Part shown: one piece after another, positions 8,937 through 10,117 of the stretch | Layout of the letters: each line of letters starts with the position of its first letter | Position numbering within the stretch: position 1 is the stretch's first letter | Virus record (IMG/VR): IMGVR_UViG_3300044949_001773 | Coordinates: 32,001 to 96,000 of that record | Origin: a virus | Reading direction: 5' to 3' (one strand) | Length of the DNA stretch: 64,000 nucleotides | The notes under the pieces: model-generated | What the model was told of the DNA's origin: nothing | What the model saw: only the letters and a program-made list of their open reading frames with translations | Database searches by the model: none | Program-made: the position numbers and the translations under genes

Positions 8937-9638
8937 ATGATGCTTATAGACCTTCATAACTTTTTTAAATATTACGACGAAAAAAATCCAAAACATATTG
9001 CTGCCGTAGAGCAATTTGAAAAAGATTTGCTTTTGAAAGCCCAAGAGCTGATGCAGGATGATGCTAACTGGGTGAAAATTTTTAGAACTAAAGAAGATAA
9101 ACCGCAAGCAACTATTTTACCTGTTCCCTTTTATCCACAAACAGATAATTATAGGGATGCGAACAGAACTTGTAACTCTTCTGCTTGTGCGATGTGCCTT
9201 GAGTATTTCAAACCCGGTACCCTAAAAGGACCTAAAGGCGATGATGCCTATGTACAAAAAGTTTTTTCAATCGGCGACACAACTGATCACTTGGTTCAGA
9301 CCAAGGTTCTTGCGTCATACGGTATTAAATCCAGTTTTTCCTACAGCCTTTCTTTTGCTGATCTTGATAGAGAGCTTGCCGCTGGTAGACCTGTTGTTAT
9401 TGGTATTCTTCATCGCGGCCCTTTATCTAACCCCACCGGAGGGCACATGGTAGTTGTAATTGGTAAGACTCCATCTGGAGATTATGTTGTCAACGATCCT
9501 TATGGTTCGTTGAATGATGGATATACTGGTTCGGTAAATAATGGTAAGAGTGTTGTATACAAGCGTAGTGAGCTTTCTCGTAGATGGGTTCCTGGGGTCA
9601 ATGATGGATGGGGTAGAATTTTTGAAGTAAAAAAGTAG
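8937..9638 (+). CDS. C39-like cysteine peptidase, probable endolysin (zero-frame product)
   Basis: VPFYPQTDN..RTCNSSACAM, GGHMVVVIG and VNDPYG give a Cys/His/Asp triad. Late promoter ATAAATA at ~8909. Confidence 0.8.
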   Translation: MMLIDLHNFFKYYDEKNPKHIAAVEQFEKDLLLKAQELMQDDANWVKIFRTKEDKPQATILPVPFYPQTDNYRDANRTCNSSACAMCLEYFKPGTLKGPKGDDAYVQKVFSIGDTTDHLVQTKVLASYGIKSSFSYSLSFADLDRELAAGRPVVIGILHRGPLSNPTGGHMVVVIGKTPSGDYVVNDPYGSLNDGYTGSVNNGKSVVYKRSELSRRWVPGVNDGWGRIFEVKK

Positions 9639-9701
9639 AGTCAACGCCACAATCTAAAATCCCTCAATGTGGCGTTGATTTAATAAAAGAATTCGAGGGA
9701 T
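9629..9701 (+). promoter_or_regulatory. Programmed -1 frameshift signal: slippery heptamer plus H-type pseudoknot
   Basis: A AAA AAG at 9629-9635, then a 5-nt spacer. Stem 1 pairs 9641-9651 with 9668-9678 (11 bp). Stem 2 pairs ATCCCTC 9659-9665 with GAGGGAT 9695-9701. Confidence 0.8.
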
Positions 9702-10117
9702 GTCATTTAAATGCTTATCCTGACCCATTGACTGGAGGACTTCCGATCACAATTGGCTGGGGTTCTACTAAAGATTTTAACGGAACTTCATTTAAACTTG
9801 GAAGAAAAATAACTCAAGAATATGCTGACAAATTATTAATGTTTGACCTTGAGCAAAGATTTCTTCCTTCACTGCAAAAAATCCCACACTGGAATGAGAT
9901 GACAGATGGAAAAAGAGGCGCTTTGCTCAGCTTTGCTTATAATCTTGGTGCCGGTTTTTACGGTGGCGATAACTTTAATACTATTACTAAACGCTTGAAG
10001 AATAAAGAATGGAACTTAGTTCCCGATGCGTTATATCTATACAGAAATCCTGGTTCAAATGTAGAAGCAGGACTTTCTCGTAGAAGAATTGCTGAAGGAA
10101 AACTTTGGAATTCTTAA
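9635..10117 (+). CDS. GH24 phage lysozyme domain, reached by -1 frameshift
   Basis: The -1 frame reads VESTPQSKIPQCGVDLIKEFEGCHLNAYPDPLTGGLPITIGWGST...ALLSFAYNLG...GLSRRRIAE. No start codon precedes the catalytic Glu. Confidence 0.85.
   Translation, partial: VESTPQSKIPQCGVDLIKEFEGCHLNAYPDPLTGGLPITIGWGSTKDFNGTSFKLGRKITQEYADKLLMFDLEQRFLPSLQKIPHWNEMTDGKRGALLSFAYNLGAGFYGGDNFNTITKRLKNKEWNLVPDALYLYRNPGSNVEAGLSRRRIAEGKLWNS

Follow-up and report, generated by a model that had tools for sequence, protein, structure and literature searches.

How can a phage make a lysozyme whose reading frame has no start codon? The question is raised by a 64,000-nucleotide (nt) stretch of DNA from a lake-water T4-like cyanophage, positions 32,001 to 96,000 of IMG/VR virus record IMGVR_UViG_3300044949_001773, which we refer to as the window. 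In it, a gene for a C39-like peptidase is followed, one base back in register, by a complete GH24 lysozyme frame. The original prediction, made from the letters of this DNA, was that one gene yields both a ~233-amino-acid (aa) peptidase and a ~393-aa peptidase-muramidase through a pseudoknot-driven -1 frameshift. Comparison with related loci lent the two-product claim strong support: the phase is the same in 64/64 loci where a lysozyme abuts the peptidase, a slippery heptamer is present in 61/64, and a hairpin follows it in 45/52 of those with no start codon at the peptidase stop. We consider it highly probable that this two-frame lysin gene is expressed via programmed -1 ribosomal frameshifting at A_AAA_AAG, because phase and heptamer are conserved, the hairpins are diverse, a start is missing, the lysozyme frame is under purifying selection, and some relatives are natural in-frame fusions.

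The features of the unit, all on the plus strand and numbered by window position, are as follows.

8876..8909, + strand: terminator-like hairpin with U-run, closing the upstream peroxiredoxin gene (folding -16.2 kcal/mol, z -4.7)
8909..8916, + strand: AATAAATA, agreeing at 7/8 positions with the T4-type late promoter motif and lying 21 nt upstream of the ATG (putative role)
8937..9638, + strand: zero-frame open reading frame (ORF) including its TAG stop, encoding the 233-aa C39-like peptidase, the short product (Peptidase_C39_2; PHROG 3617)
8937..9098, + strand: N-terminal module, residues 1-54, in both products; predicted homodimer interface (complex prediction)
9623..9625, + strand: TGA closing the -1 frame just 5' of the slip site (read from the sequence)
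9629..9635, + strand: slippery heptamer A_AAA_AAG, in phase with the peptidase frame (read from the sequence)
9636..9638, + strand: zero-frame stop TAG, directly 3' of the heptamer (read from the sequence)
9638..9681, + strand: putative stimulatory hairpin (stem 1), 14 bp, 9638-9651 with 9668-9681, 16-nt loop (RNAfold; covariation)
9659..9701, + strand: candidate pseudoknot stem 2, 9659-9665 with 9695-9701, 7 bp; unproven (duplex energy)
9635..10117, + strand: -1 frame of 160 codons, linker plus complete GH24 lysozyme plus stop; would form the C-terminal part of the 393-aa product (PF00959)
10182..10229, + strand: terminator-like hairpin (10182-10223) with U6, closing the two-frame unit (folding -17.6 kcal/mol, z -3.9)

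The locus anatomy first described is confirmed at every coordinate. The peptidase ORF ends GTA AAA AAG TAG, with the heptamer in phase, and the -1 frame is open from the TGA at 9623-9625 to 10117; because that TGA closes it upstream, the two frames overlap by only 13 nt (9626-9638), roughly the heptamer plus the stop. The motifs EFEG, YPD and TIGWG, which we take to carry the catalytic Glu, Asp and Thr of a GH24 lysozyme, are read in the -1 frame, and the window sequence has no ATG, GTG or TTG in that frame between the TGA at 9623 and these motifs. The first listed ORF start in the lysozyme frame is a TTG at 9728, 3' of both the Glu and the Asp motif, so that an ORF beginning there would lack the two residues, just as had been claimed.

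Both domains were identified by Pfam profiles matched over their full length. Residues 61-189 of the peptidase correspond to Peptidase_C39_2 (PF13529, papain-like cysteine peptidases; E 9.9e-14, 52.6 bits against a cut-off of 24, profile positions 1-143 of 143), and the lysozyme frame to Phage_lysozyme (PF00959; E 7.1e-21, 75.3 bits against 22.3, positions 1-125 of 125). Residues C79, C84, H159 and H170 of the peptidase are invariant in 57 sequences, and no sequence match to the peptidase was found among solved structures at E up to 1. The predicted products have 233 aa (26.1 kDa) and 393 aa (44.0 kDa).

The length of the A-run decides whether the frames are separate at all, and a check of it upheld the A6 reading. 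Contigs (assemblies, not raw reads) of three DNA runs from three studies (X1, X2 and X3) bridge 9629-9635 with no indel. An X1 contig (record 4) spans 9386-9932, an X2 contig (record 21) spans 9518-9904, and an X3 contig (record 25) spans 9446-9725, each with 0 differences, and a diverged relative in X2 (record 20) has 0 gaps over the slip site. The sole indels listed, at 9595 and 9599, belong to one X2 contig. Assembled contigs may let minor variants escape, and one of the three runs may be the window's own source. In an RNA run (X19), no contig covered 9617-9656.

To place the locus among its relatives, we collected deposited and metagenomic sequences. A blastn search of deposited phages returned 59 records, all Synechococcus phages, and tblastn with the peptidase returned 105; the locus was read in ten named phages. 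Three peptidase queries supplied 185 IMG/VR loci (the best 80 of 596, all 25, and the best 80 of 427). The resulting 196 sequences (195 loci plus the window) were reduced to 186 with a complete peptidase end, after dropping 6 without a peptidase match, 3 that ran off the locus end and 1 partial match, and then to 97 distinct junctions by collapsing 89 duplicates, many contigs having come up under two queries. A GH24 lysozyme abuts the peptidase at 64 of the 97 distinct junctions, and 10 of 97 are in-frame peptidase-lysozyme fusions. No GH24 domain is found nearby at 20 of 97, including S-H34 and S-CBP1, where a different C-terminal domain is in frame with the peptidase. The lysozyme is a separate downstream gene at 2 of 97 (DSL-LC02 and DSL-LC03), and 1 of 97, S-CREM1 (393 aa), is a reversed in-frame lysozyme-peptidase fusion.

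All 64 abutting lysozymes lie in the -1 frame, and 0 in the +1 frame. An in-phase X_XXY_YYZ heptamer is present at 61 of these loci (58 A_AAA_AAG, 2 T_TTT_TTT, both in the S-CAM7 lineage, and 1 A_AAA_AAA). At each of the remaining 3, an ATG or GTG overlaps the peptidase stop, so that every abutting locus has either a slip site or a start. Counting TTG as well, a start codon overlaps the stop at 12 of the 64 loci, and 8 of these 12 are of a short-linker ATGA/GTGA type with E at +32 to +41. We term "start-less" the 52 loci, S-PM2, S-CAM7 and the window among them, that have a heptamer and no start at the stop. Of these, 47 have the heptamer directly against the stop, and 36 have a 13-nt frame overlap, as does the window. 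Their stop codons comprise 45 TAG, 6 TAA and 1 TGA, and the homopolymer runs measure 6 nt at 49 loci, 7 at 1 and 8 at 2. In 37 of the 52, the region further than 8 codons upstream of the catalytic Glu is free of ATG, GTG and TTG, and ATG occurs there in only 3. In two S-CAM7-lineage loci (L004, positions 2006-2013, and L092) we observed a T8 run containing T_TTT_TTT, two codons 5' of the stop, with an 8-bp stem of its own.

An 11-bp stem had been proposed 5 nt after the heptamer, and its arms (9641-9651 and 9668-9678, behind a 9636-9640 spacer) are indeed perfectly complementary; in RNAfold they extend to 14 bp (9638-9651 with 9668-9681). Folding energy is -20.2 kcal/mol for the hairpin (9636-9682, z -7.9) and -22.9 kcal/mol for its 75-nt context (9636-9710, z -4.5), a value reached by 0 of 200 shuffles. 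We then measured helices across the relatives with a custom script for gapless helices (G-U allowed), using random positions in the same genes as background. An uninterrupted helix of at least 9 bp beginning 3-9 nt after the heptamer was found in 45 of the 52 start-less loci versus 5.3% of 2080 background positions, and the median helix was 11.5 bp versus 6 bp. These stems are not copies of one sequence: the start-less loci have 41 different 5' arms and at least 7 unrelated stem sequences, with S-PM2 and S-CAM7 each having one of its own. Eight in-frame fusions of the ACG-2014f type, serving as a no-slip control, have linker helices of only 6-8 bp, and the eight short-linker ATGA/GTGA relatives have helices of 5-8 bp. 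Three further loci with a start at the stop (L059, L063 and L070) have a long linker like the start-less class, and L070 has a 13-bp stem; their start codon may be incidental.

Covariation within the window's own lineage also points to a selected structure. When 20 distinct sequences were aligned without gaps, 98.6% of the cells of the 14-bp stem were paired, with compensatory double changes at 4 of its 14 pairs. Taking both stems together, pairing falls from 98.3% to 35-47% when the 3' partner is slid by 1-3 columns, and the observed covariation score was reached by 0 of 500 shuffles. Homologous loci thus conserve what the original prediction expected of them, namely the heptamer (61/64), the adjacent stop (47/52) and stem covariation (4 compensatory pairs), and stem 1 is very likely a frameshift stimulator.

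The second half of the proposed pseudoknot fared differently. The loop at 9659-9665 is the exact complement of 9695-9701 (duplex -12.6 kcal/mol, reached by 8 of 1000 shuffled loops), stem 2 extends from 7 bp in the window to 9 bp in most lineage members, and with loops of 7, 2 and 13-16 nt an H-type fold seems feasible. Among its nine pairs, 0 are compensatory, four vary on one side via wobble, and two are broken in some sequences; its 3' arm consists of conserved FEGC codons and is constrained by the protein. Complementarity exceeded that of shuffled loops in 17 of 21 sequences of the window's stem lineage versus 0 of 28 from other stem lineages, a test that omitted 3 of the 52 because their helix was shorter than 8 bp. 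We therefore rejected the pseudoknot as a class-wide stimulator, since pairing between loop and downstream sequence was no better than shuffled in 28/28 sequences that share the frameshift layout despite having no stem 2. Of the claim that the shift is pseudoknot-driven, stem 1 is well supported and stem 2 is complementary in the window; stem 2 shows no covariation, is confined to its own lineage, and may add to the effect there.

A Shine-Dalgarno (SD)-like tract had also been proposed upstream of the slip site. The G-rich tract is present at ~9606-9614; as a stimulator it cannot be separated from the codons of a conserved GWG motif, which peptidase-only relatives without the frameshift keep too. 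No GGAGG-type match was seen at dnaX spacing in the window's slip-site sequence.

The lysozyme frame itself has the marks of a working gene. It is complete in 50 of the 52 start-less loci, and the other 2 run off the locus. Compared with the window's lysozyme frame, the ratio of nonsynonymous to synonymous substitution rates (Ka/Ks) had a median of 0.14 over 38 comparisons and reached at most 0.19; a further 11 comparisons were saturated at synonymous sites. Third positions of the -1 frame account for 12 of 24 variable columns and 36 of 66 minority letters in the stretch directly 3' of the stop, hairpin included. By these comparisons, the start-less lysozyme frame is under purifying selection and is not a pseudogene.

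Relatives also show the two halves as one protein. ACG-2014f encodes a 405-aa in-frame peptidase-lysozyme fusion, and PHROG 3617 (405 positions) spans both halves, the window peptidase matching positions 1-235 and the lysozyme frame positions 243-405. Frameshift and in-frame solutions alternate between close relatives, because the ACG-2014f phages, near the S-CAM7 lineage, have a plain fusion. Two metagenomic contigs, L173 (~2190-2290) and L194 (~1880-1980), have A7 in place of A6 and are plain in-frame fusions of 403 and 395 aa that retain the out-of-frame stop letters and stems of 11 and 13 bp. Their junction, KKVE, is the exact product predicted for a -1 slip. They may be either natural fusion-only mutants or homopolymer assembly errors.

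On this evidence, most ribosomes would translate the peptidase frame and terminate at the TAG at 9636, yielding the 233-aa protein, an N-terminal module plus the C39-like peptidase. A fraction would be stalled with Lys-tRNAs on AAA-AAG (9630-9635) by the 14-bp hairpin starting 3-6 nt downstream, with the adjacent stop codon perhaps contributing, and would re-pair one base back with AAA-AAA, taking GTA at 9635 as the next codon. The slipped product would be the 393-aa protein of N-terminal module, peptidase, linker and GH24 lysozyme. We infer the slip itself, its efficiency and the stimulators that matter from comparison of sequences.

The recoding review PMC5009743 describes A_AAA_AAG as far more shift-prone than U_UUU_UUU or A_AAA_AAA in Escherichia coli, attributes its slipperiness to decoding of AAA and AAG by one tRNA-Lys, and states that about half of bacteria have only one such tRNA-Lys. 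The 131.8-kb phage contig has 10 tRNA genes and none for Lys; they form a cluster at 23386-27930, upstream of the window (Leu ×2, Ile(tat) ×2, Met, Arg, Gly, Asn, Thr and Pro). We typed every Rfam tRNA match (35 and 41) in two picocyanobacterial draft genomes chosen through psbA, a Synechococcus sp. isolate and a Cyanobium metagenome-assembled genome (MAG). Each has one tRNA-Lys, with anticodon UUU and no CUU, a result that is supportive only, because the two genomes are incomplete drafts and are not shown to be hosts. A psbA with 94% identity to the window's occurs on another contig, L241; although recorded as a Gammaproteobacteria MAG, L241 is probably a mis-binned cyanophage or cyanobacterial contig.

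Besides that limit, several observations weigh against ribosomal frameshifting. The support is comparative throughout, and the common -1 phase could in part reflect descent from one ancestor and not repeated selection. The heptamer is retained at nine of the 12 loci where a start codon overlaps the stop, so a heptamer alone is no proof of use, and it also encodes Lys-Lys, as in the in-frame linker of ACG-2014f. By the strict gapless measure, 7 of the 52 start-less loci have a helix shorter than 9 bp. Some GTG, TTG or ATG lies more than 8 codons before the catalytic Glu in 15 of the 52; these candidate starts are scattered and their positions are not conserved. Finally, all sites are homopolymer runs and so are compatible with slippage by the polymerase too.

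This last point is the basis of one alternative, in which RNA polymerase would add an A in the A6 run (or a U in the T8 run of the S-CAM7 lineage) and so produce an in-frame fusion mRNA. All 52 start-less sites have such runs, the two contigs with A7 in their DNA are in frame, and Thermus dnaX slips on runs of this kind (PMC5009743). The same source, however, gives 9 A or T as the length of productive bacterial runs, against 6 in 49 of the 52 loci here and 8 at the longest. The conserved G at the seventh base, the invariable X_XXY_YYZ phase of the run, and a covarying hairpin at ribosomal spacing that is absent where no slip is needed are likewise not what polymerase slippage predicts. We regard it as an improbable sole explanation, although it could add to ribosomal slippage. 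Still less probable is a free ~17-kDa lysozyme arising through reinitiation after termination or at a non-canonical start close to the stop. Coupling of this sort is workable at the locus, because 12/64 relatives have an ATG, GTG or TTG overlapping the stop and S-SRM01 is annotated as two genes; the window, however, has no such codon in the lysozyme frame from the TGA at 9623 to the catalytic motif, and in 37 of the 52 start-less relatives none lies further than 8 codons upstream of the catalytic Glu (ATG in 3/52). The TTG at +44 of some relatives is a synonymous Leu variant where the window has TTA, third-position variation starts right after the heptamer, and the hairpin would impede initiation and not aid it.

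Two loci with an own GTG start for the lysozyme (L064 and L074) retain A_AAA_AAG, followed at 7 nt by a 7-8-bp hairpin whose arms are Ile-Pro and Gly-Ile codons; they might combine coupling and slipping. The last alternative, that the split reflects a one-base assembly error in the A-run hiding a plain fusion, or else a dead lysozyme remnant, is barely credible. Metagenome contigs L173 and L194 do have A7 and a plain fusion, but A6 stands in contigs of the three runs from three studies and in 49 distinct start-less junctions, the S-PM2 genome record included, while decay is contradicted by the intact lysozyme frame in 50/52 loci and the median Ka/Ks of 0.14. Ribosomal frameshifting thus remains our preferred account.

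Elsewhere in the window, a second A_AAA_AAG followed by a stop (TGA) occurs at 20916-20922, between ORFs 20572-20922 and 20919-21137, with the -1 frame open for 72 codons. We rejected it as a frameshift site on account of a GTG overlapping the stop (GTGA) and no obvious hairpin in the A-rich sequence after it; it is probably ordinary translational coupling. The two-frame unit is enclosed by its two terminator-like hairpins (8876-8909, and 10182-10223 plus U6), neither of which was listed by a simple promoter/terminator scan of the window, and the scan's promoter count was 5 versus 4.7 in shuffles. The consensus behind the AATAAATA match at 8909..8916 is the one we take to be that of T4-type late promoters.

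Why a phage would keep both a free peptidase and a peptidase-lysozyme is a separate matter, on which the N-terminal module offers a hint. A two-copy structure prediction of the 233-aa protein scored 0.67 versus 0.00 for the best of 3 controls (57-row alignment). Of proteins solved as same-chain pairs, 20 of 30 reach this score, as does 1 of 23 solved as single chains; a custom alignment was used, so these counts hold only roughly here. Agreement between runs is at least 97% of contacts, the predicted local distance difference test (pLDDT) score of the partner is at least 83, and every confident contact lies within residues 1-54, outside the peptidase domain. The N-terminal ~54-residue module is thus predicted to dimerize, the model supporting binding without showing it.

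Copies of the module occur in other contexts. The stand-alone lysozyme of DSL-LC02 starts with one (42% identity over 67 residues, E 7e-16), and the lysozymes of both DSL-LC02 (L087:2040-2708) and DSL-LC03 (L088:1783-2448) carry their own ~50-residue copy followed by an Ala/Pro-rich linker; DSL-LC02 has an extra 127-aa ORF between its peptidase and lysozyme genes. The model suggests that the module brings peptidase and lysozyme together, and short and long forms could make mixed dimers. Going one step further, we tentatively propose that the frameshift might set the make-up of a dimeric lysin, giving short-short, short-long and long-long forms in proportions fixed by the slip efficiency, an idea we think somewhat less likely to be right than wrong. 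Under such a dimer model, the locus would have evolved in-frame, frameshift and reversed fusions, as well as the split module-bearing proteins of DSL-LC02 and DSL-LC03, as ways to join the two enzymes. Against it stand the eight short-linker relatives with their own start, in which the lysozyme has no module. Separately, six viral contigs (L110-L115) match the S-CAM7 peptidase protein at 31-45% identity over only its N-terminal ~50-90 residues; because the match is to this part only, the module may have other partners too.

The layout has close counterparts among known recoded genes. In the OrfA/OrfAB genes of the IS3 family (IS911 and IS150), ORF A carries the same heptamer close to its end, and ORF B, which lacks a start, contributes the catalytic domain only through the shift. 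Those proteins are transposases, unlike the lysin here, and IS911 uses a three-way junction as its stimulatory structure. The IS911 structure is mentioned in PMC5009743, which also covers dnaX and phage lambda. Like the lysin locus, E. coli dnaX (tau/gamma) combines A_AAA_AAG with a 3' stem-loop and makes nested products that share their N-terminus, and it depends on a sole tRNA-Lys(UUU) (PMC5009743), the only tRNA-Lys seen in the two draft picocyanobacterial genomes. Some bacteria have a "reversed" dnaX, whose long product is made only through the shift and whose zero-frame stop comes straight after the site (PMC5009743); the locus here is arranged in the same way. The differences are that the gene here encodes a phage lysis enzyme and not a polymerase subunit, that the E. 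coli shift gives the shorter product, and that dnaX has an upstream SD stimulator whereas the G-rich tract here is inseparable from the GWG codons.

Two further comparisons come from phages. Lambda G/GT is, like this locus, a late phage gene in which a -1 shift near the ORF end adds a domain; its shift sets a low molar ratio (given as ~1:30) between the short and long forms, its slip site differs, and it serves structural assembly and is not an enzyme (PMC5009743). Two-polypeptide endolysins also derive two nested, multimerizing polypeptides from one lysin gene (PMC9430671, PMC7098653, PMC4777826 and PMC3111421). Those polypeptides share their C-terminus, come from an internal in-frame start and belong to Gram-positive phages, whereas the products here would share their N-terminus and arise by recoding. 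The ACG-2014f protein (405 aa), PHROG 3617 and the reversed S-CREM1 protein (393 aa) have the same domains and N-terminal module. Plain fusions such as that of ACG-2014f are encoded in one ORF, need no slip site and lack the hairpin.

The claim that no such frameshift has been described for a cyanophage endolysin agreed with our search of the open-access literature, which yielded no description for any endolysin, cyanophage lysins included. The terms "endolysin," "lysozyme" and "cyanophage" gave 0 hits in the searched part of PMC5009743, "frameshift" and "slippage" gave 0 hits in the text of PMC9430671, and term look-ups in PMC2908710 and PMC1079782 found no description of such a frameshift. 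In GenBank the locus is annotated as two genes: the "putative lysin" of S-PM2 has 72 aa and the "lysin" of S-CAM7 90 aa, each truncated after the catalytic residues, and the S-SRM01 record starts the lysozyme at the overlapping ATG. No joined coding sequence was flagged for the locus in the GenBank feature tables of the cultured cyanophages examined. Because the annotated lysins are truncated, the sole lysozyme at the locus is missed or shortened in these records.

Judged by sequence, this is very probably a known kind of recoding, of the dnaX/IS3 type, in an unusual gene class, the lysis enzymes. The mechanism itself is textbook, and the gain is therefore in where it is used and in a possible dimer logic, with no new principle. 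In the lake-water T4-like cyanophage, in S-PM2 and in about fifty distinct relatives, a complete start-less lysozyme is most likely made only by the slip; if so, the gene classes with -1 recoding would include lysis enzymes. The natural variants of the locus (frameshift, in-frame, reversed and split) form a test system for the need for both a free peptidase and a peptidase-lysozyme. If the dimer model were true as well, the hairpin, together with the lineage-specific pseudoknot, would be a tunable dial for the strength or timing of lysis. The frameshift, if real, would offer a way to study how lysis is controlled in cyanophages that abound in fresh and marine waters.

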